From positions 148,164-212,163 of the forward strand of contig JAGYIG010000001.1 of assembly GCA_018402455.1 (NCBI GenBank): DNA of 64,000 nucleotides. The letters are read 5' to 3'. Positions 38,442 through 59,257 of this stretch are shown one piece after another (position 1 is the first letter of the stretch; every line of letters begins with the position of its first letter). The DNA comes from Opitutaceae bacterium. Its GTDB lineage: Bacteria; Verrucomicrobiota; Verrucomicrobiia; Opitutales; Opitutaceae. A program made the translations under genes and the position numbers. Below the pieces are notes generated by a model. It saw only the letters and a list, made by a program, of their open reading frames with translations. It searched no databases and was not told where the DNA came from.

Positions 38442-38777
38442 TCAACGATCGCGGAAGAACCGGAGTTCGGCCTCCAAGTGTTCGACCTTGCGCCAGAGCT
38501 CGCAGAGCAAACGGAGGGCGGCGGGGTGCAGCCTCATCCGTTGCCGAAAATGTTCGAAGCGGCGCAGTTCGTAGAGCTGGTCATCATCGAATGCGGGCTC
38601 GCGTGCCGGATCGGCCAGCGCCGGGCCGAATATTCCGAGCCGACAATAGTGCCGCAGTCGGGCGGGATGCATCCCCGCGATGCGGGCGGCTTCCTCCAGC
38701 GGGTGCACCGCCGGGGCCGCCTCTTCCCGACTGATTAAGATCAACGCATACCGAGAATTTGATGCCGTCTCTTTCAT
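38442..38777 (-). CDS. cbpM: CbpM/MerR-like chaperone modulator
   Basis: HTH-like [22 protein letters not shown]; overlaps the cbpA stop. Confidence 0.65.
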
Positions 38778-39712
38778 GCGTCTTTTCTCGGTTTGAAGGT
38801 GGAGAGCGTGGCGAGCTGTTGCCACAGTGCCTGTTCCTCGGCGGAGACCGGTCGGGGGGTGTGCACCCGCGTGGTTGCGTAGATATCGCCCCGGGTGCCG
38901 TCATCCCGGCGCAGTCCCAATCCCCGCAGACGCAATCGGCTGCCCGCTTCCGTGCCAGGGGGCACACGCAACGACATGAGCCCATCGAGGGTGGGGATCC
39001 GGGCCCGGATGCCCAACACCGCTTCCCACGGAGCGAGGTCCAAATCACAATGCAGGTCCGCTGCTTGCACCGTGAAATCCGGGTGCCGAGCCAGCCGCAC
39101 CCGCAGGTAGAGATCGCCGGGCGCGGCCCCGCCGTAACCCGGGCTGCCCTGGCCGGCCAGGCGGATGCGTTTGCCCTCCCGCACGCCCGCCGGGATTTTG
39201 ACTTGGTAGGTGTCGGTGCGCTCGGCGTGGCCGTCCATGCTCGGTCGTCGCAACGTGAGCTTGCGGGTCGCCCCGGTGAGGGCTTCGTTCAGCGTGACGA
39301 GGAGATCGGCCTCGACGTCCTGACCGGGATGGGTGAAGGCCCTCCCGTCCGCAAAGCCACGACCATCCGGGTCAGCCCGGGTCCGAAACTCGCCGCCACC
39401 ACCGGCGAAATACGATTCGAAGAAATCACTGAAGCCCGTCCCGCTGAACTCCACCTCGGGTTCGCGCGGAGGGGCCGCTTGGTGGCCGGGCTGCCATTGC
39501 GCCCCCAGTTCATCGTAGTGCTGCCGTTTGATCGGATCCGACAGCACCTCGTAGGCCTCGTTGAGCTCCTTGAATTTTGCTTCGCCAGCGACCTTGTCCT
39601 GCGCCACATCGGGATGGTGAATCCGGGCGAGCTTGCGGAACGCCAGTTTGAGGGCCGCCGGGGTGGCGGTGCGCGTTACTCCCAAGGCCTGATAGTAGTC
39701 TTGAAATTGCAC
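38774..39712 (-). CDS. cbpA: Curved-DNA-binding DnaJ homologue (class II, no Zn finger)
   Basis: [58 protein letters not shown]. Confidence 0.88.
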
Positions 39713-39730
39713 CGGGGGGAGTCCGTGTTG

Positions 39731-41206
39731 TCAGACCATGGCGTCGAGGACCCGATCGAGGCAGACGGTGGCAAAGCGGGTGGCGTGATCGGACACGGCG
39801 TAGGGAATGATGAGTTCGCGGTTGTGCCGCAGCATGCCGCAGGAATAGACGACATTGGGCACGTAGCCCTCGCGCTCGTCTTCGCGCGGAGTGATCAAGG
39901 GTGACTCGAGCCGCCCGATCACCTTGGTCGGGTCGTCGCGATCGAGCAGGAAGGCGCCGATGGAATATTTGCGCATCGACCCGACGCCGTGGCTGAGCAC
40001 CAGCCATCCCCTTTCGGTTTCGATGGGGGAACCGCAGTTGCCGATTTGCACGAATTCCCACGGGTAGGTTGGCTTGAGAATCAGGGTGGCGGAGCGCCAG
40101 AAGTGAAGGTCCTCGGAAAACATTAGAAAGATGTTTTCGTTGTCCTGGCGGGAGATCATCGCGTAGCGGCCATCGATTTTGCGCGGGAACAACGCCATGC
40201 CCTTGTTCTTGATGGCGGCCCCGCCCAGCGTGATGAACTTGAAGTCGAGGAAGTCGGAGGTCTCTAGCAACTGCGGGTGGGTGGCGCGCCCGTCGTAGGC
40301 GGTGTAGGTGGCGAAGTAGGAACGCGTGTCGTCGTCGTGCTGGAACTGCACGAAGCGCGCGTCCTCGATGCCGTTGGTTTGGGTGGGGGAGCGCGGGAAG
40401 ATGACCCGCTCCGACATCTGGTAGTCCGCCGGGAAGCGGACCTGGTAGTTGGAGTGGGCGAGATTAAGGATGGCTTGGGAAGACGTGGCGGAACCGCTCA
40501 GCTCGCCGTTGATCAACTGATTTTGCACAAAGGCAATGGCCGCCTTGAGCTCGGCCAGCGTGAACGTCTCCTTCAACGCGGCCAGAGTGTGGCGGGTGAA
40601 TTCGCCGGCGAAACCCAGCTCGGCCAATTGGCGGGCGAACCGGGATTTGAGGTAGGGCGCGTCCCGCACCGGGTGCGGCTCCGTGACAAAGCTGCTGGGC
40701 GTGTTCATCACGATGACGTTGTCCGCATCGACCACTCCGGTCCGGAAGGTGATGGAGGAGATGTGCCCCTCACCGGTGGCGCGCAGGCTGAGTACGAAGC
40801 GGGTCGATCCGGCCGGGAGCTCCGACTGGTTGGGGTGGGCCACGATGGACGGATTAAAAAGCGCGGCAGCCTCCAGCGAGTATTCGTGCGTGAAATACGA
40901 ACCGATGGTGAGTTTGCGGGCCTCACTGAGTTCGCGGTCGGTCAACAGGTGGGGCCGCATGAACTCGAAGCGTTCCATAAAGATCTCCTTGGTCTTCTGG
41001 TGGCGGTTGGCGAACTCGGCCAGCACCTGCGCCAACAGGTGTTCGATTTCGGTCTCCGACAGGGCGAGCAGTCGGGCAATGATTTTCAGAATCCGTTGCT
41101 CGGTGGCCGGTGCGAAGGGCCGGATGAGCACGCGCCGGTGATCGGGATTGATGAAGATATCGGTGCGGTTAACGACCGGGCAGAGCGGCAGGGGGGACGG
41201 TTTCAT
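39731..41206 (-). CDS. Glycoside hydrolase family 130 protein with long N-terminal extension
   Basis: ALFNPS, SLRATGEGHISS, GIEDARF, YFATYTAYDG, NKGMALFP, GNCGSPIET, GYVPNVVYSCG. Confidence 0.85.
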   Translation of the reverse strand: MKPSPLPLCPVVNRTDIFINPDHRRVLIRPFAPATEQRILKIIARLLALSETEIEHLLAQVLAEFANRHQKTKEIFMERFEFMRPHLLTDRELSEARKLTIGSYFTHEYSLEAAALFNPSIVAHPNQSELPAGSTRFVLSLRATGEGHISSITFRTGVVDADNVIVMNTPSSFVTEPHPVRDAPYLKSRFARQLAELGFAGEFTRHTLAALKETFTLAELKAAIAFVQNQLINGELSGSATSSQAILNLAHSNYQVRFPADYQMSERVIFPRSPTQTNGIEDARFVQFQHDDDTRSYFATYTAYDGRATHPQLLETSDFLDFKFITLGGAAIKNKGMALFPRKIDGRYAMISRQDNENIFLMFSEDLHFWRSATLILKPTYPWEFVQIGNCGSPIETERGWLVLSHGVGSMRKYSIGAFLLDRDDPTKVIGRLESPLITPREDEREGYVPNVVYSCGMLRHNRELIIPYAVSDHATRFATVCLDRVLDAMV

Positions 41207-43541
41207 AAAGGGTGACCTCCGGGCTCGCGGGCTGGTCGGCGAACGCGGCCAGCTCGTTGTGCATGATCTGGAGTTCGGCGCGGGCCAGCTGGAACGCCAG
41301 GGTGGATTCAGCCCCTTGGTTTTCGTTCACTCGGTCGGCGTGCAAGGCGTCCCGGCAGCCGCCGCTCTTGGTATCGTAGAGCATCAGCGCGAGATCGTTG
41401 CGGCCGATAAACCATTCGAACACGACATGGGCACGATCGAGCCAGACCGAGTCGGCGGTGGTGCGGAAGGCTTCCAGACAGGCCGACACGGTGGCCTGCA
41501 CTTCGACCGGTTGTTGATCGAAGAAGGCGCGGGTGCCGTTGCGATGGCAGAAGCCGTCCGACCCGATGGGTTGGAAGATGCCCTCGGGCGAGGTCTGGAT
41601 CTCGATCAGCCAGCTTAACGCCCGCAGACCGGTCTCCGTCACCTCCGGCTGTTGGTTGGCGTGGCCGCATTGGATCAGGGCGTGAGGCAGCCGGGCGTTG
41701 TCGTAGGTGGCGTCATCGGCCAGCCATTGCCAATCGTCCCGGGCGTGGTCGGCGAAGCGTGCCATCAGCCGGTCCGCCAGCAGGGTTCGGATCCGCTGGG
41801 CTTCAGCGTCATCGGAGCGATGACGCAGGTAATCGTGGATGCCCAGCAAGGTGAAGGCCCAGGTGCGGGGGTGGCCCAAGTCAACGGCCGCCGGCAACGC
41901 AGCGGCGAACAGCTGATTGGTGAGCAAGCGGCAGCCGCGATCGCGGGAGCGGCCGCTGCACACCCCGAGGGCCCACAAGGCCCGCCCGTGGGAGTCTTCC
42001 GAGCCCTGGGTTTCGAGCCAGCGCCGGTCGTAGCTCATGAAGTTGCGGAACCGGCCGGTGGCGGGGTTGAACGCGTAGGCGAGGAAAGCGGTGTAGGTGG
42101 TGGTGAGGGCGGCGATCGCGGGCAGCGTCTCGCCCAGTTGCGTCCAGTGCAGCATCAGCATGAGGGCCCGGGCATTGTCGTCGGTGCAGTAACCGTGGTT
42201 GTAGTTAGGAAGTGAATACAACGCGTGCTGAAGCATCCCGGTGGAGTCGCTCATCCGTAGCACGTGGTCCGGATTGAATTTGGGCAGGTGCATCGGGGCC
42301 TCGGCGAGGGTGCGCACCAGCAGCGACCGCCGTTGGGTATCGGCATACACGGCGTGCGCGGTGGCGAAGCTCTGTCGATAGTGGATAGCGGAGCGGCTCC
42401 ACACCATGTCACGGCCGGCGCGGTAGGCCTGCTGGCGCAGGGCGAGGCGGCGGGGTTCGTCGCGCAGCAGGTCGCACACCTCCCGGGCAATCGCCTCGTG
42501 GTCGCCAAAGGGCACCAACACCCCCTGGCCGTCGGCGAGGAGTTCAAGGGCGTGCCAGTAGGGCGTGGAGATCACCGCCTTACCGGCGCCAAACGCGTAG
42601 GCGAGCGAGCCGGAGACGATCTGTTGCTCGTTTTGGTAGGGGGTGATGTAGACGTCGGCGGCGCCGATGAAGTCCTGCAGTTCGGGCAGGTCGACGTAGC
42701 GGTTGTAGAAGATGACGTTCGGCTCGACGCCGTTGGTTTTGGCCAGGCGCTCCAGCCCGAGGCGGTAGGCCTCGCCGTGTTCGCGCACCAGGTTCGGGTG
42801 GGTCGCCCCCAGGATGAGGTAGACCGCCTGCGGAAACTCGGCGATGATCCGAGGCAGGGCGTTGAGCACCTGCTCGATGCCTTTGTTGGGGGAGAGCAAT
42901 CCGAAGGTGAGCAACACCGGACGATCGTCCACCGCAAACAGGGTTTTGAAGCGATCGGGCTCCTCGAAGGGCCCGTCGTGGATCCCATGCGCGATGATGT
43001 CGATTTGATCGGCGGGCGCGTGATAGACCTCGCGTAAAAACTGGTGGGCTCGCTGGGTCATGACCACCAGCCGGGCGGAGACCTTGATCAGGGCGGCCAT
43101 CACCCGCCGCTGCTCGGGATCGGGTTCCGCCAGAACGGTGTGCAGGGTGGTGACCACCGGCATTTTCAGGGTGCGCACCAGGGCCAGAATGTGGCCGCCG
43201 GCGCTGCCGCCGAAGATCCCGAATTCATGCTGCAGGCACACCACGTCGAACTTCGATTGGTTGAGCAGTTCGGCCGCGCGTTCGTAGCTGGAAATGTCTT
43301 GCTCGTTGATTTCGAAGATGACCTCCGGGGGGTAGGTGTGGCTGGCCACGCCGTCGTCCACGGCGATGACTTTGCCTCCGGTGACACCGCCGGAGGCAAC
43401 CACGGACCGACGCAGGTCCTCCGTAAACGTCGCGATGCCGCACTGGCGGGGCGGATAGCTGCCGATGAAGGCGACTTTGAGGGCGTTCTGCGGGTGGCGC
43501 GGACGTGAGGGCGGAGCGGTCAGGGAGGAGGAAGTTAACAT
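41169..43541 (-). CDS. GT4 glycosyltransferase fused to a C-terminal six-hairpin-glycosidase-like domain
   Basis: YPPRQCGIATF, LQHEFGIFGG, TTLHT, FGLLSPNKG, SGSLAYA; C-terminal GMLQHA, YCTDDNARA, EDSHGRALWALG, YDNARL, NQGAEST. Confidence 0.85.
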   Translation of the reverse strand: MLTSSSLTAPPSRPRHPQNALKVAFIGSYPPRQCGIATFTEDLRRSVVASGGVTGGKVIAVDDGVASHTYPPEVIFEINEQDISSYERAAELLNQSKFDVVCLQHEFGIFGGSAGGHILALVRTLKMPVVTTLHTVLAEPDPEQRRVMAALIKVSARLVVMTQRAHQFLREVYHAPADQIDIIAHGIHDGPFEEPDRFKTLFAVDDRPVLLTFGLLSPNKGIEQVLNALPRIIAEFPQAVYLILGATHPNLVREHGEAYRLGLERLAKTNGVEPNVIFYNRYVDLPELQDFIGAADVYITPYQNEQQIVSGSLAYAFGAGKAVISTPYWHALELLADGQGVLVPFGDHEAIAREVCDLLRDEPRRLALRQQAYRAGRDMVWSRSAIHYRQSFATAHAVYADTQRRSLLVRTLAEAPMHLPKFNPDHVLRMSDSTGMLQHALYSLPNYNHGYCTDDNARALMLMLHWTQLGETLPAIAALTTTYTAFLAYAFNPATGRFRNFMSYDRRWLETQGSEDSHGRALWALGVCSGRSRDRGCRLLTNQLFAAALPAAVDLGHPRTWAFTLLGIHDYLRHRSDDAEAQRIRTLLADRLMARFADHARDDWQWLADDATYDNARLPHALIQCGHANQQPEVTETGLRALSWLIEIQTSPEGIFQPIGSDGFCHRNGTRAFFDQQPVEVQATVSACLEAFRTTADSVWLDRAHVVFEWFIGRNDLALMLYDTKSGGCRDALHADRVNENQGAESTLAFQLARAELQIMHNELAAFADQPASPEVTLYETVPPAALPGR

Positions 43542-43609
43542 CAGGAGAGGCCCCCCGCGGTGCGAGCGGAGGCGTTGCGGATCTTGCGCGTGTTAAGGCC
43601 TGAATCGCC

Positions 43610-43680
43610 ATGGGGTGATACCCTACTTGCAGCGCGGGGCGTGACGTTTGGCTGCAGCGAGGGGTAGGGATAGACCCCAT
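43610..43680. promoter_or_regulatory. Pair of inverted 17-bp candidate operator sites in the GT4/dodecin divergent promoter
   Basis: ATGGGGTGATACCCTAC (+, 43610-43626) and ATGGGGTCTATCCCTAC (-, 43664-43680). Confidence 0.5.
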
Positions 43681-43777
43681 GGGCAGGGCGCGGACGTAGG
43701 TCCACCCTCGTTGCTGCCGCCCTCACTGAAGAGACCAACGCGGGTCGTCCCTCCGGTGGTTAATCCCTGCTTATTTT

Positions 43778-44002
43778 ATGAAAGACCTCACTGTTTACAA
43801 AACCATCGAAATCACCGGCACCTCCGCCTCTTCCATTGAAGAGGCGCTGAATCAGGGCATTAAGCGCGCCAATCGAAGTGTCAAAAACATGAGTTGGTTT
43901 CAACTGATCGAAACGCGCGGCAACATCGTCAAGGGCAAGGTGCACCACTGGCAGGTAACGATGAAAATCGGCTTCGCCTTGGTCGATGCGGACGAGAAAT
44001 GA
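43778..44002 (+). CDS. Dodecin (flavin-binding)
   Basis: VYKTIEITGTS..SIEEA, WFQLIETRG, WQVTMKIGF. Confidence 0.93.
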   Translation: MKDLTVYKTIEITGTSASSIEEALNQGIKRANRSVKNMSWFQLIETRGNIVKGKVHHWQVTMKIGFALVDADEK

Positions 44003-44113
44003 TTCGACCCGCCTAAGGCCCGCCCTTTCCGAGCAGGACGGGTCGCCCGGCGGTGTCAATGAACCCTCGGCGCCTTCGTCTTCGGGGTCGATGTCAGCCC
44101 AAAACTCAAGGTC

Positions 44114-44605
44114 GTGATGAAACGTAGCCTGATCAATCTAACCGTCGATCTGATCGCGGCCGTCAGCTTGGGGTTGATGGTCGTCACCGGATATATTTTG
44201 CGGTTCCCGTTGCCGCCGGCCACCAACCGCAGTGCGGCGTTGTGGGGCATGTCGCGGCATGAGTGGGGCACCGTTCACGCGTGGGCGGGCGCCGGCTTAT
44301 TGGGGGTGCTCGGGCTCCACGTCATCCTCCACTGGGATTGGATATTTGCCACCATCCGTCGCCGGTTTACCGGCACCCCGGCCGCCCCCACGGCGCGGCG
44401 GCGAGCCGGGGTGATCGCGATCGTGGTGGCTCTGGTGGTCGGCGGGCTGTTCGCCTGGGTGGCTCAAAGCAGCGTGCGGGAGCGGGAAAGTGCCCCCCGG
44501 CATTCGCCCCGCGGTCTGGGGCCATCCCGTGAGCCAGACGTCGGCCAGACGGCAACTCCCGATGGAGTGAAGAACCCATATCCCGAGACCTACCCCAAAC
44601 CTTAG
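44114..44605 (+). CDS. DUF4405-like (cytochrome b-like) membrane protein
   Basis: TGYIL..WGMSRHEWGTVHAWAG..LHVILHWDW. Confidence 0.8.
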   Translation: MMKRSLINLTVDLIAAVSLGLMVVTGYILRFPLPPATNRSAALWGMSRHEWGTVHAWAGAGLLGVLGLHVILHWDWIFATIRRRFTGTPAAPTARRRAGVIAIVVALVVGGLFAWVAQSSVRERESAPRHSPRGLGPSREPDVGQTATPDGVKNPYPETYPKP

Positions 44606-44609
44606 GGTG

Positions 44610-44684
<75 letters not shown>

Positions 44685-44700
44685 TGAACAAACTCCCCCG

Positions 44701-45072
44701 ATGCCGATCACATGCTTGGAAGAAAATAGCGGTGAGCTGCTGGCGATCTACGTTTCGGGGAAACTGACGGTGGAGGACTACGAGCAGTTGGGGCCGCAAT
44801 TTGAGCGACTCGTGAGCGAACATGGGACCCTGCGCGTGCTGTTTGACATGACTGATTTTCACGGCTGGACGGCCAGCGCGCTCTGGTCGGACACCAAATT
44901 TGCCCTGCATCATTTTAAGGACATCGAGCGGCTCGCGATGGTGGGGGACAAGAGGTGGCAGGAGGGGGTGGCCGTGTTTTGTCGGCCCTTCACCCGGGCG
45001 AAAGTACGTTACTTTGACCATGCCGATGGGGTCGATGGCCGCCGTTGGCTGAAGGATTCCTGCGCCGATTGA
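44701..45072 (+). CDS. SpoIIAA-like (STAS/SEC14) protein
   Basis: SGKLTVEDY, LRVLFDMTDFHGW, ALWSD.KF, IERLAMVGDKRWQ, VRYF. Confidence 0.88.
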   Translation: MPITCLEENSGELLAIYVSGKLTVEDYEQLGPQFERLVSEHGTLRVLFDMTDFHGWTASALWSDTKFALHHFKDIERLAMVGDKRWQEGVAVFCRPFTRAKVRYFDHADGVDGRRWLKDSCAD

Positions 45073-45164
45073 TTCGTCATGAAGAGCCGATCGCTAATCT
45101 GCCCCCCGGAGGGCCCCGGCGGGCGGGGACGGCGGGCCCCGGCTCGATGTCCCCCCGCGGCGTT

Positions 45165-46154
45165 ATGAGTGGGGGAGCCGCTCTCCAGTCACCGAGAGAG
45201 GCCGTGCTGCCGGTGCCGGCCACGACCAACGATGCCAGGGTTCTGAAATGCCTGCAGCAATCGAAGTTGTTTGCCGACTATCGGGAAGCGTTTGAATCCG
45301 TCACGGGGTTTCCCCTCGTGCTGCGCGCGGCCGGATCCTTTCAGGTACCGTTGGCCGGCTCGGAGCGCGCGAATCGGTTTTGCACCCTGATGACGCAGGC
45401 CAACAAAACCTGTTCGGCCTGCCTGCAATTTCAACAGCGCACGGAGGACGCGGCCACCGTCCGGCCGCAAACCCTGACCTGCGCGGCGGGGCTCAGCGAG
45501 ACGCTGGTGCCCGTGCGGGTGGGGCAGCGGGTTTTAGGCTACTTGCAAACGGGACAAGTGTTTCTCACCCGACCCGCGAAGAACCGGCTGGACCGGTTCT
45601 TGAACACCCATGCCGAGGGGGTCACGGACGCGGCAGGTGCGGAGATCCGGGTCGCGTATTTTCACACCCGATCCGTCAAACCCGTCCACTATGAGGCGGT
45701 CGTGCGCCTGCTGGAGATTTTTGCCGAGCATCTGGGAAGCGTCAGCAATCAGTTGTTCACCAGCCGGAGCAGCCGGGAAGCTCCGCTCGTGACCAGAGTT
45801 CGCGCTTTCATTGCCGAGCACCAGGAGGAGGTTCTCCACCTCATTGACGTGGCGCGGGCCGTGAGCATGAGCCCGTGCTATTTTTGCAAGCGGTTCAAAC
45901 GGGAGACCGGGCTCACCTTTACCGAGTATTTGGCGCGGGCACGCATCGAGGCGGTGAAACGCCTGCTGCAAAACGAGCACGTTCGGGTGAGCGAGGCGGC
46001 CTTTGCCGCCGGCTTCCAATCGCTCTCCCAGTTTAACCGCGTGTTTCGGAAAGTGGCCGGAGAGTCCCCGACTGCCTTCCGGGCGCGATTGCCCCGCTGG
46101 GCACCTCGCCCAATGCGTTCCACCCCGACCCGACGCCGGGTTACGGGGGGGTAA
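45165..46154 (+). CDS. AraC-family regulator with PocR-type ligand-binding domain
   Basis: AFESVTGFPL, NRFC..C..C, CAAGLSETLVPV; C-terminal YFCKRFKRETG, VSEAAFAAGFQSLSQFNRVFRK. Confidence 0.9.
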   Translation: MSGGAALQSPREAVLPVPATTNDARVLKCLQQSKLFADYREAFESVTGFPLVLRAAGSFQVPLAGSERANRFCTLMTQANKTCSACLQFQQRTEDAATVRPQTLTCAAGLSETLVPVRVGQRVLGYLQTGQVFLTRPAKNRLDRFLNTHAEGVTDAAGAEIRVAYFHTRSVKPVHYEAVVRLLEIFAEHLGSVSNQLFTSRSSREAPLVTRVRAFIAEHQEEVLHLIDVARAVSMSPCYFCKRFKRETGLTFTEYLARARIEAVKRLLQNEHVRVSEAAFAAGFQSLSQFNRVFRKVAGESPTAFRARLPRWAPRPMRSTPTRRRVTGG

Positions 46155-46405
46155 CGTCACCAAGGAAATAAGATACCACGGGGTGGTCAGGTGAATGAAA
46201 GGTTCCAACCTGGCCACCCGTTAGGAAGGAATCCAACGCTCCGAACCGCAGCCCGTCGAAAAGGGTTCTCCAAGGCATCAAATCCACGGAAGCCAAGCCG
46301 TAACGGCAGAAGCTGGGAAGCGATGTGCATACGGTGGTGGCGCCGTTCGCTGGCACCTCAGCGTGGCTCGTCCGGAGCGTCCCGGTGCCGGTCCCCCAGA
46401 CAGCG

Positions 46406-46422
46406 GCAGGGGAAGACCCCAT
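46406..46422 (-). promoter_or_regulatory. Candidate operator upstream of the PRC-barrel gene
   Basis: ATGGGGTCTTCCCCTGC on the minus strand, similar to the 43664-43680 site. Confidence 0.45.
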
Positions 46423-46556
46423 AGCAAGCGGGAGTCCCCGGGTGCATGATGGCTTTCGACCCGAAGTCACGCCGCGTCACGCCGCGGAAAATCCAGCCAA
46501 CAGCCGGTTACCCCGATGTCACCGGCCCGCCCAAGAATCCGACCGTCCTCAATCTC

Positions 46557-47285: not shown

Positions 47286-47325
47286 CCGGACCCCCTTGGT
47301 GGGAGCGGGGTGGAGACGCTGCTCA

Positions 47326-47390
47326 GGTTGACCCCGAAAGACACGAAGCCGTCAGCCTGGAGCGGCGGTTTCGGCGAAACCGCCCTACCT
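47326..47390 (-). repeat. GTAG-type REP (family A) joined to a TTCGTG-type motif
   Basis: Reverse strand GTAG-GGCGGTTTC-GCC-GAAACCGCC..GCTGACGGCTTCGTGTCTTTCGGGGTCAACC. Confidence 0.85.
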
Positions 47391-48096
47391 TGGGGTGGGT
47401 AGGGTCGTTGCTTGACGACGACCGACGACTGCCTCTTTGCCGCAGTCCTGATTCAGTCCGCGCTTCGGGCTCGCGGCTGTCAAATTGGGCAAGATCGTGC
47501 TCACCACCGGAAAACTCATGATGGCCAATCCTGCTCTTCTCTCTCGCTCAACCCTCCTGCGCGCTGCGGCAGGGGGACTCCTGTTGGCCGTTGCCACCCT
47601 CCTGTTTGGTCAGGGCATGGGCGTCGTTTTGGCCTCAATGAAGACACCATCAAATCACGATTGAGGCCGATGCCAGCGCGGTCATGGCGACGGTCTACGA
47701 AGGTGACGAGATCGCGGTCGGGCGGTCGGCTAAATCCTGGACCTACATGAAGCGGGCGCATCGGCACGCGGAGGGATGGGCACCACGGCCGTTGCCCTGA
47801 TCACCAAGCAGCCTCGTCGGCGCGTCACCTCGGTCCACCTTGGTCATCAGCTTAGTGCTGGGGTGCTGGAGGCTTGGGCTATCTGATTTCTCTCTGGATG
47901 TGGGCCGGACTTCGAGCGCCGGCCATGGGCGGCACCGGTGCCGCCAAGGAGTCCTCGCTTGGCTGGCTTCATGCCTTCTTCCGGGGATTTGTCCTCGCGA
48001 CGATTGCCGTCTTTATCCGGTCCTGTGGGGGGCATCGCGGGCCGGAGCTGCGGAGCAGTGGGCGGGAATGACCAGCAGTGGGCAAGGTGACTGGAT

Positions 48097-48340
48097 CAGC
48101 GATCCCGGCAATGAACCCCGCTCACCCGCCGCAGCGGGCGGCCGTCAAGCGCCGCCCTACGCATGGCACCCGTGGCCTCACCGATGCACTCAGGTAGGGC
48201 GGCTTCGCCGAAACCGCCGCTGCGGGGCTGACGGGTGCTACCGTCCGCGCCCGTCAGCCCGCACCGGGATCAGCGATCCCAACACCAACCCGCCCACTCC
48301 GCCGCAGCGGGCGGCGTCAGCGCTGCCCCTACGCGTGCAC
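48097..48340. repeat. BIME-like mosaic: REP-B (-), REP-A (+), REP-B (-)
   Basis: B copies at 48136-48160 and ~48309-48332, A copy at 48194-48218; flanks CAGCGATCCC..CCGCAGCGGGCGG duplicated. Confidence 0.8.
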
Positions 48341-48597
48341 CCGCGCCCCCGCCACGGCGACCCCTTCGGCTGGGGTAGCATAACGCCCCATAGTCGGGGG
48401 AATCGGGGAGGGTTATGCTGGGGGTGGCCCTAGTTCCCTCCAGTGATTTTACCACCCCTCCAGATCTCCATTCTTCCATCCGCTCCGCCGCGGCTGCGGG
48501 TTTTTTTATCGCATCGCCCGGCGCCCGCAAGGTCGGTGATCGATCCCGCGCGCCGCCCCGCCTCAATCGAGTCCCCTGTTTCCTCCCCCCCCCTTTT

Positions 48598-48927
48598 ATG
48601 ACTTCACCCTCCCACGACAAAATCTCTCAAGCAGCCTGGCAACTTTGGCAGAACCGCGGTTGTCCCACTGGTTGCGATATCGAAATCTGGCTGGACGCCG
48701 AGCAGAACCTGATCACAAACCCGACCGACGCCTCGACGACGCCAAAATCCGGGGCCCCTCCCGGCCGGGAGAACCACCTGTCGCCCGCTCAGATGGAACA
48801 GAATGCGATTCTGCTGGATGGGCAAAAAGCCGAAGCCCGCGCCCCTCAGTCCCCCCAGCACTCCAGCCCGACGGTCAAGCCTCCCCAGAGCGGCAAGCCG
48901 CTCTGGCCCCAACCGCAATCTTCCTGA
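48598..48927 (+). CDS. DUF2934 domain protein
   Basis: HDKISQAAWQLWQNRGCP.G.DIEIWLDAE followed by a low-complexity tail. Confidence 0.82.
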   Translation: MTSPSHDKISQAAWQLWQNRGCPTGCDIEIWLDAEQNLITNPTDASTTPKSGAPPGRENHLSPAQMEQNAILLDGQKAEARAPQSPQHSSPTVKPPQSGKPLWPQPQSS

Positions 48928-49068
48928 GGCTGCCTCGCGCCGACTCGCGGGATACGGCGCACCAGGTGCGGGTGCGGGCCGGGTACCTTTTCGGTAGGCG
49001 CGTTCCCCACTCCCCCCCGCAACCCAGACCCGTTCACCGCTGGTCCTCCCGCTCTTCCCGTTGTCCCC

Positions 49069-50106: not shown

Positions 50107-50122
50107 CCCCATACCCCCCGTT

Positions 50123-50954: not shown

Positions 50955-52178
50955 ATGTCGAACCCGCCTCCCCCGCGCGTGCTCATCGTGACCATGAAAA
51001 AGTGGTGGTTGGGCGTGGCGCGACTGCCGATGGCCTTGCGGGAGGCGGGATTCGAAGTGGCGGCGTGGTGCCCCGACGAATCATTCATCGCCAAGTCCGG
51101 CGGACTGGCCCGCCACTATCCCTGGCAAACGGAAGCCAACTGGCATTGGGAGCTCTTGCGCATCGTGGCGGATTGGGACCCCCGTTTGGTTATCCCCGCC
51201 GATGAAACGTTGGCGGTTTATTTGCGCAAGTTGGCCCGGGGCAGCGGCGGTCTGCGGCGCGAGGATCGGCGAATGCGTTGCATCCTGCGCGAGTCATTGG
51301 GGCACCCACGACGTTCCGCCGCGCTGGATGGCAAGATTCAGTTGCAGGCTCTGGCGCGCTCGCTGGGGATCCGGACGCCGGATGACCACGTGTTTCGTTC
51401 GCCTGACGCCGCGGTGGTTCACGGGCATGCGTTCGGCTGGCCGCTGGTGCTGAAAGACGAATCCGCCGCGGGCGGGCGCGGCGTGGCGATTTGCCCCAAT
51501 GAAGCGGCTTTGCGGACGGCCTGGGCGCAATGGAACGCCGACCGACCAAGTCGCTCGCTCAAAGCGCGCCTGCGCGAGTGGATCAAAGATCCGCGGGCGG
51601 CGCTGGCGGGCCCGCGGCGATCGGTGCAGCGTTTTATCTCGGGCCGGCCCGCGTTCCACGCGGTGGTGGCGTGGCAGGGCCGTCGCCTGGGGGGAATCAC
51701 CGCGGTGGTCGAAGTGGCCAACCCGCCGGTCACCGGGCCGAGCTGTGTGGTCAGAATCAAGAATCTGCCCGAGATCAGCGAGGCCAGTGAGAAACTGGTG
51801 GAGGCGACGGGAATGACGGGATTTGCGGGCTTCGATTTCATGGTCGAGGACGGCACGGATCAGGCCTACCTGCTGGAGTGCAATCCGCGACCGACGCCGG
51901 TTTCGCACCTGCAGGCGCCCGTGGCCGCCAACCTCTGTCGCCGGTTGCATACCGCAATGGCGGGGGAGGAGCCGGTCGGGGAGGAGTCGTTTCCGGAGCA
52001 GCTTCTGGTGCTTTTTCCACAAGAGCTGCTGCGCGATCCCGCCAGTGCCTACCTGCCGCAAGCCCGGGTCGATTATCCGGCCACAGACCCGGCGTTGGTC
52101 GCGGCCCTCAAGGCGCACTACCCGGAGCTCAGTCAGGCAATGGCCGGGCAACGGGCGTGCTTTCCGCCCGACGCTTGA
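50955..52178 (+). CDS. ATP-grasp domain protein, substrate unknown
   Basis: VIPADE, GWPLVLKDESAAGGRGVAIC, VQRFISG, TGFAGFDFM, YLLECNPRP. Confidence 0.8.
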   Translation: MSNPPPPRVLIVTMKKWWLGVARLPMALREAGFEVAAWCPDESFIAKSGGLARHYPWQTEANWHWELLRIVADWDPRLVIPADETLAVYLRKLARGSGGLRREDRRMRCILRESLGHPRRSAALDGKIQLQALARSLGIRTPDDHVFRSPDAAVVHGHAFGWPLVLKDESAAGGRGVAICPNEAALRTAWAQWNADRPSRSLKARLREWIKDPRAALAGPRRSVQRFISGRPAFHAVVAWQGRRLGGITAVVEVANPPVTGPSCVVRIKNLPEISEASEKLVEATGMTGFAGFDFMVEDGTDQAYLLECNPRPTPVSHLQAPVAANLCRRLHTAMAGEEPVGEESFPEQLLVLFPQELLRDPASAYLPQARVDYPATDPALVAALKAHYPELSQAMAGQRACFPPDA

Positions 52179-52209
52179 AGCGCCGGGGCCGGCTCCGCGC
52201 GGCGGGCCC

Positions 52210-53583
<1,374 letters not shown>

Positions 53584-54044
53584 GATGCAAAAGGTAGGGC
53601 AAGTGCTCTCCGAAAGCAAAAGTCCCGTTGCTTCCGGTTGCCGCCTTGCTGGCGGACGGGGGTCTTCGCCCCATAGACGGCCGGGCGGAGATGGCCGAAT
53701 ATCCGGACGATGCAGATTTCAGCCCACGCCGGTCATCACGGCCCGATCTCGGGCCCGGATCCTGGCAGCGGGCGCGGGGTTTCGCACCCCCTGACCAACC
53801 CACGGCTGATCTTTGTATGAGTGACACCAGCGCCAGCTTAAGCCGGAAGATTTCGGTGGCCGGTGATCCCCAGTCCGTCGTCCGCACCATGAAGGCCTTG
53901 GCGGCATCGAGCATCGGCCAATATAAAAAATGGGAGGGCGCTACCGACCGCCCCGCCAACGGCTGCTGCCCCGCGATGGGGCGGGGCAGACGGAATGCGT
54001 CCGATCGATCCTAGCGCGGCGGACCCCGGAAGCCGGTTGATTTT

Positions 54045-54914
54045 ATGAAGAAAAAAATAGACCCCAGTGCCCACCGGGTGCGGCCCGGTGAAACGGTGGA
54101 CCTCGCGCAGCGACCGACTCACGTGAAATCCGTTTACGACTCCAAAAAAGCGTATCGACGGATGCTCGCGAAGCGGGTCGATGAGCTGAGCGATTTGCAG
54201 CGACTGCACTACGCCTCCAACCAGCACTCCTTGTTGCTGATCTTTCAGGCCATGGATGCGGCCGGCAAGGACGGGGCGATTCGCCATGTGATGTCGGGGG
54301 TGAACCCGCAGGGGTGTCAGGTCTTCAGTTTCCAGCAACCCAGTGCCGAGGAGCGGGAGCACGATTTTCTCTGGCGCACGAACAAGCGACTGCCGGAGCG
54401 CGGCCGCATCGGGATTTTTAATCGCTCCTATTACGAGGAAGTGCTGGTGGTGCGGGTCCATCCGGAGCTCCTGCGCGCACAGGGATTGACCGCTGAGGGG
54501 ATCGCCGGGCGGTCCATTTGGGAGGATCGGTTCCAATCGATCACGGAGATGGAGGCGCACCTGCACCGCAGCGGCACCCGGGTGCTCAAGTTCTTCCTGC
54601 ACCTGTCGAAGGCGGAGCAACGCGAGCGGTTTCTGGCCCGGATTGATGAACCGGACAAGAACTGGAAATTCAGTTTAGCGGATGTCGCGGAGCGACAACG
54701 ATGGGATGATTATCAGCGGGCGTATGAAGCCTGCTTGAGCGCCACCAGCACGGAGGATTCGCCGTGGTATGTCATCCCGGCCGACGACAAAAAGAATGCG
54801 CGCCTGCTCATCTCCCAAGTCATCGTCGATTCCCTGCAGGCGCTGAAGCTGCGTTACCCCAAGGTCAGCGTGGCGCGGCGCCGGGAACTCCGCGAGCTGC
54901 GCGAGCAGCTGTGA
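54045..54914 (+). CDS. ppk2: Polyphosphate kinase 2 family (class III-like)
   Basis: [58 protein letters not shown]. Confidence 0.92.
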
Positions 54915-54926
54915 GCCCGACAATCG

Positions 54927-55988
54927 TCAGGCGAAGACGCGTTCGGAGCCCGCGGCATAGCGCCCCTGGACGGCGAGAGCGTTGAACCGCGCCCGCTTGA
55001 GCAACTCGGCTTGCGCCGGAACCACGTTGGCGGCATCGCCCGCCCAAACTTGGAGGGCCGCGTCCTGCAACGCCCGGCCAAAGGAGAAGCTGAGGGTCCA
55101 GGGCGGGTTGTCGTAGCGGCAGATCTCGTTGAGACGCTCCGTGGCGTCGACGTCGTTTTGCCCGCCGGAAAGGAACACGATGCCGGGCACGTTGGCGGGC
55201 ACCACCTGTTGCAGCACGTGCAGTGTGGTCTCGGCAATCTCGGTCGAGGTCACCGCCTGCCCGCAGTCCTCGCCCGGCAGGATCATGCCCGTCTTGAGCA
55301 ACATGCCATCGAGCGCGACCCGATGTTCGTCGAGGCGGGCGAACACGGTTTGGACCACACCGCGGGTGATGTGGCCGCAACGGTCCAGCGTGTGACCACC
55401 GGCCATGAGGACCTCCGGTTCGACGATGGGCACGAGACCGGCTTCCTGACTGGTGGCCGCGAAGAGCGCGAGGATGCGGGCGTTGGTTTCGATGGCGGTG
55501 GCGCTGGGCAACCCGTCGCCGATGGCAAATGTCGCCCGCCACTTGGTGAAGCGGGCGCCGCGCGCGGCGTAGTCGGCGAGGCGGGCTCGCAGGTTGTCCA
55601 GGCCCCGCGTGGTCGTCTCGCCGGGGAAGGCGGGGAGCGCGCGCGTGCCGGTGTCGACTTTGACCCCGGGAATGATGCCGTGCCGAACCAGGGCAGACGG
55701 CAGCAAGGTGCCATCGGCGATGGGCTGGGAAAGGGTTTCCTCGAAGAGGATCATACCGCTGATGGCGTCGCCGAGCTCGGGGGTGGTGGCCAGCAGCTCG
55801 CGGTAGGCGTAACGGTTCTCCCGCGTGAAGGGAATATCGTGGGCGGCGAAGCGACGCCCAAGGGTCCCAAAACTTTCGTCGGCCGCCAGGATGCCCTTGC
55901 CCGGATCGACCAGCGCGCGGGCGGTGGATTGGAGGACAGTCAGAAACGGGGGAACCGGAGTCATGGAGGAGGGAAGGGGAGCGCTCAC
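54927..55988 (-). CDS. Fructose-bisphosphate aldolase class I
   Basis: GKGILAADES, ILFEETL, GVKVDTG, GARFTKWR, PIVEPEV, LLKTGM, FLSGGQ, LSFSFGRALQ. Confidence 0.94.
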   Translation of the reverse strand: MSAPLPSSMTPVPPFLTVLQSTARALVDPGKGILAADESFGTLGRRFAAHDIPFTRENRYAYRELLATTPELGDAISGMILFEETLSQPIADGTLLPSALVRHGIIPGVKVDTGTRALPAFPGETTTRGLDNLRARLADYAARGARFTKWRATFAIGDGLPSATAIETNARILALFAATSQEAGLVPIVEPEVLMAGGHTLDRCGHITRGVVQTVFARLDEHRVALDGMLLKTGMILPGEDCGQAVTSTEIAETTLHVLQQVVPANVPGIVFLSGGQNDVDATERLNEICRYDNPPWTLSFSFGRALQDAALQVWAGDAANVVPAQAELLKRARFNALAVQGRYAAGSERVFA

Positions 55989-56207
55989 GCGTTCATCGCC
56001 GCGAGTTGACGCTCGCCGTCGGATTCACCGGTCAGTTCCCGTTTGGCCTGTTCGTAGTCGGACTGGGCGATGGTCGGGGGCGCGGGGAGAAAAGGCGAAT
56101 GGGATGGGTTTGGCATGGGTGAATTTTGAGGAAGAACCGGCCTTGGGACTATGGGGTCTTAGCCCCGGTGGCGCGGCTGCGGTTGGGGTTGGAAACGTGG
56201 AGGGTGG

Positions 56208-56250
56208 GCCGTCGGCCTGGAGCGGCGGTTTCGGCGAAACCGCCCTACCT
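56208..56250 (-). repeat. GTAG-type REP (family A)
   Basis: CCTGGAGCGGCGGTTTCGGCGAAACCGCCCTACCT, near-identical to 47348-47390. Confidence 0.88.
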
Positions 56251-56252
56251 CC

Positions 56253-56576
56253 TTAGACCGTGGCGATGGCGGCGGAGGGGGCGTTGGTTTGCACGGAGGC
56301 CATGCCGACTTGGGCGGCCGCCTCGGAGGCATACATCTGACTCTTGCCGATGACCTCGCCGTTTTGAGCCTTGAGCACAAAATAGGGTTCGCCCGCGGTG
56401 GAGACCTTGTGCTCAAAGTTTTCGGCGTGGGGTCCGTTGAGCTGCACCGATGTGATGCCGGCCAGGGCGGACTGATTCTGTTCGTAAACCTGACTGGTGA
56501 GAATCACCTCATGGTTCTCCGCCTTCAGGTTGAAGATGAACTTGGCGTTGGTGGTCGGGCTGATTAGGTAGGACAT
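56253..56576 (-). CDS. YegP/DUF1508 tandem-repeat protein
   Basis: FNLKAENHEVILTSQVY and FVLKAQNGEVIGKSQMYASE. Confidence 0.9.
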   Translation of the reverse strand: MSYLISPTTNAKFIFNLKAENHEVILTSQVYEQNQSALAGITSVQLNGPHAENFEHKVSTAGEPYFVLKAQNGEVIGKSQMYASEAAAQVGMASVQTNAPSAAIATV

Positions 56577-56638
56577 TTTTTTGACGGGGGACGACGACAA
56601 GCAGAGCGACCGAGGGGCCGCGCTCGAGCGCGCAGTGA

Positions 56639-57070
56639 TCAGGGGGCGATTTGGTTGAAGGCGGTCTGCACGCGCTGCCACGCCGCGGCGGTTTCGGCCT
56701 TGGTGTGGGCCCAGGTTTCGGACGTGCTGGTGCGGGCGGCGGCCAGTTGGACTTTCAACGCGGCGCGGGCGGCCTTGAATTCCGTGACGGTCGCTTCGCG
56801 GGCCGGGGCGGTCGCCGCCGGGACCTTTTCGAGTTTGGCCTCGAGGGCAGTTCCCATCCGGTCCATCGAGGCGGCGAACTCATCGCGTTGCTCGAAGGTG
56901 TAGCCTTTGATCTGCTCCCATGAGTCCGCGGCGATTTGTTTGGCTTCAGCCGCCACTTCTTTCGTTTCTTGGACGACGGATTCAGCCGAGTCTTTTTGGA
57001 AGCAAGCAGAGAAGAGCAAGGTGGTGGGGCTCAACGCGGCGATGAGGAGAAAGGAGGGCGTGATTTTCAT
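56639..57070 (-). CDS. Helical lipoprotein, probably stress-associated
   Basis: Lipobox LFSA-C; Ala/Lys/Glu-rich helices; WEQIKGYTFEQRDEF. Confidence 0.7.
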   Translation of the reverse strand: MKITPSFLLIAALSPTTLLFSACFQKDSAESVVQETKEVAAEAKQIAADSWEQIKGYTFEQRDEFAASMDRMGTALEAKLEKVPAATAPAREATVTEFKAARAALKVQLAAARTSTSETWAHTKAETAAAWQRVQTAFNQIAP

Positions 57071-57293
57071 GGATGGATAATGGGCTGAACAGTGGGGCCG
57101 GGGAGCCGCAAAGGCGACTGGCACGGGGGTGGGGCCTGCGGCCATCCTACCTGCGGTGGGGTGCTCCCGATATGGGGTGTTCAGGGTAGGGTCCTCACCC
57201 GGTACGGGGACCCCATGCCTCTGGCGCGTCCGGCCAAAATCCACGGCGGGATCGACCCTCGGCCGTCCCGCCCCGCCAACGGAAAGCGGGCAA

Positions 57294-57980
57294 TCAGATC
57301 AAGGTGACCTGCACGCCACTCTCGATAATGCCATGTGACATGGCGTAGCGGGTCAGCCCCGCGGTCTCATGGATGTTGAGCTTATCCATCAAATGCTGCC
57401 GGTGCTTTTCGACCGTCTTAATGCTGATGCCGAGCAGGCCGGCGGCCTGTTTGTTGGCCTGGCCCTCGGCGACCAATTGCAGGACTTCCATCTCGCGCGA
57501 GGTCAGGCGGGCACTGTTTTGCTTGGCCAAACCATCGCGGTCGCGGGACCGCCTTTGCTTGTCCATCAATCGCCGTGCGATGGTGGGGCTGTAAAAGGTC
57601 TTCCCTGCCGCGACCTGATGGATGGCCTTGGTCAGCACCTCCGCGGAAGTCTGTTTCTCCAGAAAACCCATGGCTCCCACTGTGGCCGTGCGCTCAACAT
57701 ACTCGTCGTCGCTGTGGGCGGAAAGGATCAGCACCCGGGCCGCGGGGTTGTGAGCCAGGATTTGTTGCGTGGCCACGAGGCCGTTGAGTTCGGGCATGGC
57801 GATGTCCATGAGGATGACATCGGGCTTGAGGGCGGCGGTCATTTCCACGGCGGCTCGACCGGTTTGAGCCTGTCCGACGACGACGCAATGGCCTTCCGCT
57901 TCCAGCAAGGTGCGCAGGCCCTCGCAGACCACGGCGTGGTCTTCGGCGAGCAGCACGGTAATCTTTCGGCCGGGGTTCAC
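57294..57980 (-). CDS. NarL/FixJ-family response regulator (REC plus LuxR HTH)
   Basis: VLLAEDH, DVILMDIAMP, LILSAH, FLEK, LTSREMEVLQLVAEG, ISIKTVEKHR. Confidence 0.94.
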   Translation of the reverse strand: MNPGRKITVLLAEDHAVVCEGLRTLLEAEGHCVVVGQAQTGRAAVEMTAALKPDVILMDIAMPELNGLVATQQILAHNPAARVLILSAHSDDEYVERTATVGAMGFLEKQTSAEVLTKAIHQVAAGKTFYSPTIARRLMDKQRRSRDRDGLAKQNSARLTSREMEVLQLVAEGQANKQAAGLLGISIKTVEKHRQHLMDKLNIHETAGLTRYAMSHGIIESGVQVTLI

Positions 57981-59116
57981 GTGCGCTCCTCCGGTGGAAA
58001 TGGCATCTCGGCGAGCACGGTGGTGCCCTCGCCCTGAGCGGATTCGATGAGCAAGGTGCCCCCCACCATCTCCAGCCGTTCCCGCATACCCAACAGACCC
58101 AGCCGGGCGTGCGCCTTGGTCGACTGCACCTGCTGCACCTTGAATGACTTGCCGTTATCGTGGATTTTCATGCGGACCACGTCGGGAAGCTGGGTGATAC
58201 TCACATTGATCAAGGTCGCCTTGGCGTGGCGGGCGACATTGGTGAGCGCCTCCTGCGCCACGCGGTAGAGCACGATGCGCTTGACGCTCGGCATCTTCTC
58301 CACCCCGGCAAAGGCCGTCAGGCGGATACGGATCTGTCGCCGGGCGGAAAGCTTTTTCATGAAGACCTGCAGGGCCGGAATGAGCCCCAGGTCATCCAGG
58401 GCGGCGGGCCGCAGGTCGCGGGCAAACTGGTGCACCGCATTGACGGATTTTTCCACCAAGTGCTGCGTGCTCGCGATTTTCTTTTGAAAGGCCTTGGTGC
58501 CGAGCTCCGCCGCCTTGCCCAGCGCCGCGAGCTCGACATTGATTCCGACTAGGATCTGCACGACTTCATCGTGCAACTCCCGGCTGATTTCGAGTCGCTC
58601 GTTCTCTTGGGCGGAGAGCATTTGGTGGGTCAGGCTGCGTAGTTTTACCTGCATGAATTGGGATTGCTGGAGCAATCGCTGGTAGCGCTCATTTCCCTCC
58701 TTGAGGGCCGCTTCGCTGGCTTGGCGCCGCTTGACCTCGCGAGAAAGCTGGCGGTTGCCCCGGGCCAATTCCTTGGTGTGCAGGTGCAGGTGGGAGGTTC
58801 GCTCCTCGATTTGTTTGAGCGATTCCCGGACCGCAATGTGTTCCCGCTCCAACGGCACAAGGACTTCGGCGAAGAATCGACCGGTGCGCAACTGCAGGCC
58901 ATTGCCCGTTTTGGCAAAATCGTAGTCTGGCGCCAGTGCCACCAGTGCCTGCTCGTGGATTCGGGCCAGGGCCAGAATCTCGCAGTCGGCGGCCAGAGCC
59001 TCGCGGCCTAGGGCTCGAGCGGCTGCCACACCCCGGGACCGGGGAGCATCGAGCTGATCCCGTAGGGCATTGCGATAGCGCCGCGCCAGCTCCGGGGGCT
59101 TCTTGGTTTGTTTCAT
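57977..59116 (-). CDS. Soluble HisKA_3 sensor kinase with RsbU N-terminal-like domain
   Basis: No TM; N-terminal YRNALRDQL..ARALGREALA..LARIHEQAL; QENERLEISRELHDEVVQ, LDDLGL, YRVAQEALTNVARHA, DNGKSF, GLLGMRER. Confidence 0.85.
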   Translation of the reverse strand: MKQTKKPPELARRYRNALRDQLDAPRSRGVAAARALGREALAADCEILALARIHEQALVALAPDYDFAKTGNGLQLRTGRFFAEVLVPLEREHIAVRESLKQIEERTSHLHLHTKELARGNRQLSREVKRRQASEAALKEGNERYQRLLQQSQFMQVKLRSLTHQMLSAQENERLEISRELHDEVVQILVGINVELAALGKAAELGTKAFQKKIASTQHLVEKSVNAVHQFARDLRPAALDDLGLIPALQVFMKKLSARRQIRIRLTAFAGVEKMPSVKRIVLYRVAQEALTNVARHAKATLINVSITQLPDVVRMKIHDNGKSFKVQQVQSTKAHARLGLLGMRERLEMVGGTLLIESAQGEGTTVLAEMPFPPEERT

Positions 59117-59240
59117 GCTGTCGTCGAGGGGGCGATAAATCCTGCAATGCTCCGACCGGAATCAGACGTTCAGTCGGGGCTCCGCAGCGGATACCGCCTC
59201 CATCTGGTATATAATAGACCCTGAAAATCGGGAAATAGCG

Positions 59241-59257
59241 ATGGGGTATACACCTAA
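59241..59257 (+). promoter_or_regulatory. Candidate operator upstream of the kinase/regulator operon
   Basis: ATGGGGTATACACCTAA, similar to the 43610 site. Confidence 0.4.

Follow-up and report, generated by a model that had tools for sequence, protein, structure and literature searches.

We analyzed a 64,000-nt stretch of DNA (hereafter "the window"; G000:C1:148164-212163) from an Opitutaceae assembly (G000; 3.67 Mb, 100 contigs, 62% G+C, 91% complete) and found that a 21-bp quasi-palindromic box, GGTAGGGTWACACCCCATRGC, recurs before genes of a 21-kb block that also encodes a HisKA_3-type kinase and a NarL/LuxR-type response regulator. The half-sites of this box read RTRGGGT, and the sites, when read toward the nearest downstream gene, have GTRGGG-N5-CCCCAT in common. 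We consider it probable that the box is the docking site of the neighboring response regulator and that the pair represents a class II stress switch recurring across Verrucomicrobia. A first-pass annotation of the block had proposed, on the basis of 17-mers that turn out to be the core of this box, a stress regulon that the local kinase and NarL-type regulator would control by way of an inverted repeat; every comparative test that we ran, all of them on sequence, supports this proposal. Genomes other than G000 are labeled from G001 upward, and loci containing the regulator carry L labels.

A protein scan for the regulator, using one genome per species, yielded 80 loci with 58–84% identity, and their ±10-kb neighborhoods comprise 1.2 Mb of DNA from Opitutae, Verrucomicrobiae, Akkermansiaceae, Luteolibacter, Methylacidiphilales, and one Sedimentisphaerales metagenome-assembled genome. 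These neighborhoods were scanned with a seed matrix of 25 sites, the window's own sites among them. The 21-column weight matrix was then derived exclusively from 220 sites outside G000, which had originally been located via the seed matrix, window sites included. Judged by the matrix from other genomes, the window's boxes are the top five matches, and seven of the top 23, in the entire assembly; nearly all of the remaining matches of at least 13 bits lie within coding sequence. The enrichment also withstood comparison with 200 dinucleotide-preserving shuffles: the window holds six matches of at least 18 bits, whereas the shuffles average 0.03 and never exceed 1. Even the degenerate pattern of the first-pass annotation, RTGGGGYNNNNNCCYRC, has three matches in the window vs. 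0.29 expected from shuffles, and 24 across the assembly; three of the six fully intergenic ones fall in the gene block. All of the 17-mers that had been quoted are present at their coordinates. Seven of the eight discrete sites that had been claimed are supported (13.0–28.5 bits). The eighth, GTGGGGAACGCGCCTAC, which had been placed at 48994 before curA (48993..49013, plus strand), is not a box, as it scores -1.1 bits and is accompanied by no -10 element at the expected offset. It had also been remarked that no full sites were noticed in the promoter regions checked left of 38 kb, and indeed the matrix scan shows no good box in that part of the window.

Could the 17-mers be chance occurrences in GC-rich DNA, or copies of a mobile repeat resembling the GTAG-type repetitive extragenic palindromes (REPs), with no role in promoters? 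The box begins with GTAG, as do many REPs, and the block contains a real REP-like hairpin family. Chance, however, is excluded by the shuffle controls, and the box does not behave as a repeat: there are only about seven good intergenic copies in the assembly, whereas REPs number tens to hundreds per genome; all seven are located 5′ of genes, the distance from box to -10 element is constant, and the boxes are conserved across classes of the phylum before varying genes. We rejected REP/REPIN identity, as the true REP-like hairpins of the block have a different sequence, lack the CCCCAT half, and are found 3′ of genes. The likelihood of this explanation is negligible.

The placement of the box is highly regular. 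In the regulator-ortholog loci, 220 of 225 matches are intergenic, and within co-directional gaps 108 boxes point with the genes vs. 17 that are opposed to them. When the 220 sites and their flanks were aligned with the box at positions 1–21, a second signal emerged that had not been used in the search: T (frequency.62), A (.69), and T (.83) at positions 41, 42, and 46. The exact sequence TAnnnT is present at this modal offset in 105 of the 220 sites, and in no more than 11 at any other shift. Thus, a housekeeping-type -10 element (TAnnnT) lies 22 nt after CCCCAT. If positions 41–46 are taken as -12 to -7, the center of the dyad (position 10, between GTAGGGT and ACCCCAT) falls at about -43, and the 3′ end of the box (T-R-G-C) covers the -35 hexamer, where T and G are all that remains of TTGACA; transcription is then predicted to begin near position 53, about 7 nt past TAnnnT. 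A consensus scan of the block for -35/-10 promoters found no more of them than in shuffles. This layout points to class II activator-dependent promoters of the lux-box type, in which the dyad is centered at about -41.5 to -43.5, with starts that are predicted from the spacing. The "operator" of the first-pass annotation therefore survives as a short inverted repeat, and not as a plain operator: it is the upstream half of a promoter with fixed geometry, pointing to class II activation.

The box is conserved in orthologous promoters, a check that the first-pass annotation had suggested: 224 matches of at least 14 bits occur in the 1.2 Mb around the 80 regulator orthologs vs. a single match to the reversed matrix, and at least one box is found in 75 of the 80 loci. 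Many copies of the motif occupy the intergenic gaps around the kinase and regulator orthologs of the relatives, and several of them precede orthologs of the PRC-barrel gene, DJ-1, the 143-aa gene with the aldolase, PPK2, and the kinase. In G006, the orthologs of PPK2 and the aldolase are in box-headed units and the ortholog of the 143-aa gene follows a full box; in G016, a box is situated about 1 kb upstream of the aldolase ortholog.

Genome-wide counts were obtained with a strict pattern, GTRGGKNNNNRCCCCAT, which detects only a minority of boxes and part of whose background is tRNA T-arm sequence, GTGGGTTCGAGCCCCAT. Among 31 related genomes, six (G000, G006, G014, G016, G018, and G019) have orthologs of both kinase and regulator, and exactly these six have an excess of boxes. 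The strict-pattern counts in the six are 4, 4, 7, 8, 2, and 8 (mean 5.5), compared with a mean of 0.88 in the 25 regulator-negative relatives and about 0.3 for a reversed-pattern control (one-sided Mann-Whitney, 2e-4). The same tendency was evident in a sample of 201 genomes of the phylum with completeness of at least 90%: the 20 regulator-positive genomes average 3.4 strict boxes vs. 0.5 in the rest, and at least three such boxes occur in 8 of these 20 vs. 3 of the 181 others (Fisher, 3e-7). The main outlier, G184, has ten consensus boxes, with fragments of the regulator at contig ends beside them. In most regulator-positive genomes, the regulator gene has a genome-wide pattern match no more than about 15 kb away. 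In G016, orthologs of GT4-GH130-cbpA-cbpM follow a divergent box pair on a contig different from that of the kinase-regulator pair, an arrangement that would support action in trans. Of the genomes sampled, only 4 of 17 from the genus have the pair together with boxes, as do 8 of 15 from other genera in the family.

The regulator itself has a canonical receiver domain: its translation contains E13-D14, the acceptor D59 in LMDIAMP, S87, and K108. Its closest solved structures are those of VraR/LiaR, NarL, and DevR (VraR, E 7.5e-37; DevR, 3c3w, E 1e-24). None of the NCBIfam cut-offs for named NarL-family equivalogs (NarL, NarP, UvrY/GacA, MctR, UhpA, EvgA, RcsB, FixJ, and others) was reached; the best of these matches, to MctR, scored 197.6 bits vs. 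a cut-off of 300. The cytoplasmic kinase is encoded upstream of the regulator with a 4-nt gene overlap, and its N-terminus has an RsbU_N-like match of 24.0 bits, below the cut-off of 25.5. Partner kinases in L023-L102 come in two forms, one short and cytoplasmic (about 340–395 aa; 15 of 33) that shares the N-terminal domain of the window kinase, and the other very large and multidomain (1000–2000 aa). Input from a stressosome by way of the RsbU_N-like domain is conceivable; matches to HATPase_c_2 are almost all within large kinases. In G016, kinase and regulator are in one open frame.

Two features connect this pair to the box. The dyad symmetry and the 11-bp spacing of the half-sites suit a dimer of GerE-type helix-turn-helix domains, and in about 41 loci a box stands before the operon of kinase and regulator (kinase-first in 28 units, regulator-first in 13), making this the commonest box-headed unit. 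As a box heads the window's own kinase-regulator operon as well, the autoregulation that had been surmised for the pair is supported, and we predict it throughout these loci. The box-to-kinase layout of the window, with similar box-proximal sequence (CGCTATTT), is also found in L023 and many other loci.

Co-occurrence alone cannot separate a regulator from a gene that is constantly co-regulated. We considered whether the box is read by another factor, be it a transcription factor or an alternative sigma factor, for example one of the extracytoplasmic function (ECF) type, with the kinase-regulator pair being a mere member of the regulon. An ECF sigma gene does lie behind a box in 14 loci, and G000 holds a 48%-identical ECF sigma factor elsewhere. 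However, no ECF sigma gene is behind any box of the window block, the -10 element is of the housekeeping type (TAnnnT) rather than the ECF type, and the box is a dyad whose 22-nt gap between CCCCAT and the -10 element is too long for a sigma -35/-10 pair, whose elements are 16–19 nt apart. An alternative-sigma promoter, whether ECF- or SigB-type, was rejected on these grounds of spacing, dyad symmetry, and -10 type. As for the other transcription factors of the block, PocR-AraC and MerR/CbpM are not conserved around boxes elsewhere; the regulator and kinase are the only genes that always accompany the boxes. A different reader of the box is thus quite improbable.

We infer from these comparisons that the neighboring regulator binds the box, that it activates, and that it does so in response to a stress-type signal. 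In the mechanism that we propose, a stress or slow-growth signal would cause the cytoplasmic HisKA_3 kinase to phosphorylate the NarL/LuxR-type regulator, a dimer of which would then bind the box and recruit housekeeping RNA polymerase in class II fashion. The result would be to turn on the regulator's own operon, a positive feedback, along with six or seven neighboring transcription units: GT4-GH130-cbpA-cbpM; dodecin; PRC-barrel; DUF2934; a small open reading frame (ORF) with PPK2; a small ORF with the class I aldolase; and perhaps the 143-aa gene with YegP.

Several points weigh against this reading. The loci were chosen by the presence of the regulator, and so local co-occurrence with the box is partly built in; the genome-wide pattern counts correct for this choice. 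Related genomes are not independent, such that the P values given above overstate the case, although the direction of the effect is consistent at every level. Several regulator-positive genomes have only 0–2 matches to the strict pattern, which misses most boxes. In the window, a poor or shifted -10 element accompanies three of the seven boxes. The "stress" label of the targets derives, in our assessment, from the reputation of their families outside this phylum. Finally, the box overlaps the -35 position, and such a site could also repress.

This last point can be developed into an explanation of its own, in which the regulator binds the box but mainly represses, or acts dually, by occluding the -35 region, with dephosphorylation leading to derepression. 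The T-n-G remnant of a -35 element inside the box means that polymerase and regulator could compete, and box 5 lies 38–74 nt upstream of the divergent fumC start, where interference is possible. Yet the absence of a -35 consensus and a dyad near -43 constitute the classic activator-dependent class II layout, and the strict orientation (108 vs. 17) and single fixed offset are needed for polymerase recruitment, not for occlusion. Positive feedback, a feature of other stress regulons, would suit the presence of boxes on the operon that encodes the regulator. We therefore regard repression as unlikely and favor class II activation by the phosphorylated regulator.

The seven boxes of the window and the features associated with them are collected in Table 1. 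The 17-mer core of box 2 is present in identical form in G016. Where the first-pass annotation had seen several partial sites at 57156-57216, we found one half-box with TAGGAT at the correct offset, and the others were not supported.

Table 1. Boxes of the window, their -10 elements and predicted targets, and the kinase-regulator pair. Coordinates are those of the window; transcription starts and targets are predictions.
Feature	Coordinates	Strand	Score (bits)	Sequence	-10 element	Predicted start (near)	Predicted target, or content
Box 1	43607..43627	(-)	28.5 (best match in assembly)	AGTAGGGTATCACCCCATGGC	candidate CAAGAT, 43580-43585, 2 nt off modal offset		GT4-GH130-cbpA-cbpM operon, 38442-43541, minus strand
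Box 2 (divergent from box 1)	43663..43683	(+)	22.4	GGTAGGGATAGACCCCATGGG	CACCCT, 43703-43708, modal offset	43715	dodecin, 43778-44002; possibly also DUF4405 and SpoIIAA-like gene
Box 3	46405..46425	(+)	23.5		CATGAT, 46445-46450, modal offset	46457	PRC-barrel gene
Box 4	48374..48394	(+)	20.3		TATGCT, 48414-48419, exact TAnnnT at modal offset	48426	DUF2934 gene, probably 48598-48927; curA, DJ-1, and ATP-grasp gene co-oriented further downstream
Box 5	53657..53677	(+)	18.8		GAATAT, 53697-53702, modal offset	53709	36-aa ORF from ATG 53710, then PPK2 (54045-54914)
Box 6	56148..56168	(-)	13.0		CAAAAT, 56123-56128, modal offset	56116	43-aa ORF (55985-56116), then class I fructose-bisphosphate aldolase (54927-55988)
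Box 7 (predicted autoregulatory box)	59238..59258	(-)	26.4		candidate TATTAT, 59211-59216, 2 nt past modal offset	59204	operon of kinase and regulator
Possible weak site	57169..57189	(-)	3.9	right half (GAACACCCCATATC) intact, left half degenerate	TAGGAT, 57144-57149, modal offset		downstream neighbors: 143-aa gene (56639-57070), YegP/DUF1508 (56253-56576)
Kinase	57977-59116	(-)					HisKA_3 (PF07730) and HATPase_c; cytoplasmic; upstream of regulator
Regulator	57294-57980	(-)					NarL/LuxR-type; receiver PF00072, 3.8e-28; GerE PF00196, 1.1e-17 (residues 158-213)

The geometry of these promoters bears on where the proteins begin. The ATGs at 46446 (PRC-barrel) and 48415 (DUF2934), although first in their frames, fall inside the -10 hexamers CATGAT and TATGCT, and therefore the start of the PRC-barrel gene is probably 46557 and that of DUF2934 probably 48598; automatic annotation would make both proteins too long. 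The former start agrees with the G006 ortholog, a 241-aa protein that is likewise encoded behind a box. Across the regulator loci, whose genes were called with our own codon-bias caller and whose distances to start codons are thus approximate, start codons cluster at two distances: the ATG is at position 53 in ECF sigma genes and at about 61 in BON-domain genes. The former placement implies a leaderless mRNA. Leaderless targets of this kind are plausible, because about 10% of the starts mapped by Cappable-seq in Akkermansia muciniphila are leaderless (PMC4782308). In the window, ATG 56116 is exactly 7 nt past the -10 element of box 6, at the predicted start, and opens the 43-aa ORF, which would be leaderless; ATG 53710 is next to the predicted start of box 5 and opens a 36-codon ORF (53710-53820, plus strand). 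Four homologs of the 43-aa ORF occur near regulator orthologs elsewhere, and its stop codon overlaps, within GTGA, a GTG at which the aldolase gene may begin.

Pfam confirmed the gene calls that had been made for the block. On the minus strand are genes for MerR/CbpM-like, DnaJ/CbpA, GH130, and GT4 proteins and, further on, for class II fumarase, class I aldolase, YegP/DUF1508, and the 143-aa protein; on the plus strand are those for dodecin, DUF4405, SpoIIAA-like (PF11964), PocR-AraC, PRC-barrel, DUF2934, CurA-type reductase, DJ-1/PfpI, ATP-grasp, and PPK2 proteins. The first-pass annotation had placed the whole 21-kb block under the control of its motif, which our matrix scan of G000 contradicts: no separate box heads fumC, curA-DJ-1-ATP-grasp, or PocR-AraC. 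These genes may share transcripts with boxed neighbors.

Elsewhere, the genes behind boxes near regulator orthologs encode BON/OsmY-like proteins (21), ECF sigma factors (14), ice-binding-like PEP-CTERM proteins (11), and KaiC-KaiB (5), as well as small membrane proteins (DUF1328, DUF3309, DUF3185, and DUF5670), PRC-barrel proteins, fatty-acid desaturase, and phosphoketolase. Few of the block's genes recur in the ±10-kb neighborhoods of the regulator, close relatives apart, and we conclude that the local content is lineage-specific while regulator, box, and autoregulation are constant. The regulon is not tied to this block but is phylum-wide, with only its local gene content varying. In the G000 assembly (91% complete), we found no orthologs of the BON, KaiC, or ice-binding-like proteins that are common targets elsewhere, and a matrix scan of the whole assembly revealed no convincing regulon members outside the block; the regulon appears to be compact in G000. 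Its gene content fits a general stress set, with CbpA/M, dodecin, DUF2934, PPK2, and YegP in the window and, in other genomes, BON/OsmY-like, DUF1328, DUF3309, DUF3185, and PRC-barrel proteins, an ECF sigma factor, KaiBC, and a desaturase. In this lineage, the block behaves, on the evidence of its distribution among genomes, as an accessory stress island that would be patchily inherited.

The KaiC-KaiB operons behind a box, at L024:6065-8157 and four other loci, adjoin regulator orthologs, which hints at a KaiBC module linked to this two-component system in some Opitutaceae. An intergenic dyad at C24:2049-2069 (minus strand), CTGAGGTAAACACCTCATATT, located 30 nt before a gene, scored 17.4 bits; we rejected it as a box because it lacks a -10 element at the offset typical of boxes and its cores read GAGG/CCTC. 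A related regulator may recognize it.

Some further features of the block deserve record. The REP-like hairpin family, AGGTAGGGCGGTTTCGCCGAAACCGCC (beginning AGGTAGGGCGG), has copies at 47348-47390, 48192-48234, 56208-56250, and 61256-61298, all 3′ of genes; two of these form an inverted pair that flanks 801 nt (47391-48191) with no confident gene. The hairpin has GGTAGGG in common with the left half of the box, but no CCCCAT half. A C-rich tandem tract of roughly 7-nt units (ACCCCCG / ACCCTCA) is situated at 44610-44677, between DUF4405 and the SpoIIAA-like gene. No Rfam RNA family matched within 38000-62000.

A more sweeping proposal is one on which belief and doubt are, for us, in balance: that this kinase and regulator, together with the box, make up the master general-stress or dormancy switch of Verrucomicrobiota and of neighboring lineages of the Planctomycetes-Verrucomicrobia-Chlamydiae group, Akkermansia included, with many transcripts leaderless or nearly so, and that the window block is a compact, patchily inherited stress island that has also recruited enzymes of carbon and polyphosphate metabolism (the class I aldolase, PPK2, and GT4-GH130). 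Full-text searches of the literature turned up no account of this regulator, box, or regulon, nor of how the general stress response is controlled in Verrucomicrobia. A LuxR-family regulator of Methylacidiphilum fumariolicum, Mfum_790006, a possible ortholog, rose threefold in chemostat cultures, from 1760 to about 5000 reads per kilobase per million (PMC3404531). The mechanism would be an ordinary NarL-family two-component, class II design; its value is in the biology of an understudied phylum rather than in a new principle. Soil, freshwater, and the gut (Akkermansia) all harbor abundant Verrucomicrobia. With a regulator that is 58–84% identical across classes and a 21-bp box that is almost invariant and occupies a fixed promoter position, a single protein and a single motif could predict the regulon in any genome of the phylum. 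Such predictions cover where transcription starts, which start codons need correction (in the window, those of the PRC-barrel and DUF2934 genes), and which small ORFs are leaderless. As a stress-inducible promoter part, the box could also be of use in the genetics of these bacteria.

How does this system compare to those already described? The closest analog is DosR/DevR of Mycobacterium tuberculosis, which likewise has a NarL-family regulator with HisKA_3 kinases, a dyad box rich in G3/C3, positive autoregulation (here predicted), a promoter-proximal box over the -35 region, and many small stress or dormancy proteins, often encoded near the regulator. The Dev box is of the GGGACT-TT-AGTCCC type, however, and its GGG and CCC cores are about 3 bp further apart than those of the present box. 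Moreover, the window regulator is no ortholog of DevR, as VraR/LiaR and NarL score higher than DevR; the window kinase has no GAF or heme domains; and both phylum and gene set differ. NarL/NarP, with its "7-2-7" sites, and LiaR/VraR belong to the protein family of the window regulator, and their dimers, which are driven by phosphorylation, bind inverted heptamers. They differ from the present case in half-site (here RTRGGGT) and spacing, and the window kinase is cytoplasmic, with no membrane sensor like that of NarX/LiaS.

In promoter architecture, the resemblance is to the lux-box promoters of LuxR/TraR (dyad at about -42.5): to judge from the alignments, a dyad of about 20 bp would take the place of the -35 element, always equally far from a housekeeping -10, and would be read by a dimer of GerE/LuxR-type helix-turn-helix domains. 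In contrast to LuxR/TraR, the window regulator has a phosphorylated receiver and not an acyl-homoserine-lactone-binding domain, and its regulon is of the stress type rather than one of quorum sensing. In its targets, namely BON/OsmY-like and PRC-barrel proteins, DUF1328, YegP, CbpA/M, and small membrane proteins, the system is reminiscent of SigB (Bacillus), EcfG/PhyR (Alphaproteobacteria), and RpoS (Gammaproteobacteria), and the weak RsbU_N-like N-terminus of the window kinase, though below the cut-off, adds to the likeness. Unlike those systems, a two-component activator acting with the housekeeping sigma factor would be the switch here, not a replacement sigma factor. If the pair is indeed the master switch proposed above, a two-component class II activator would do in Verrucomicrobiota what SigB, RpoS, or EcfG do in other phyla.

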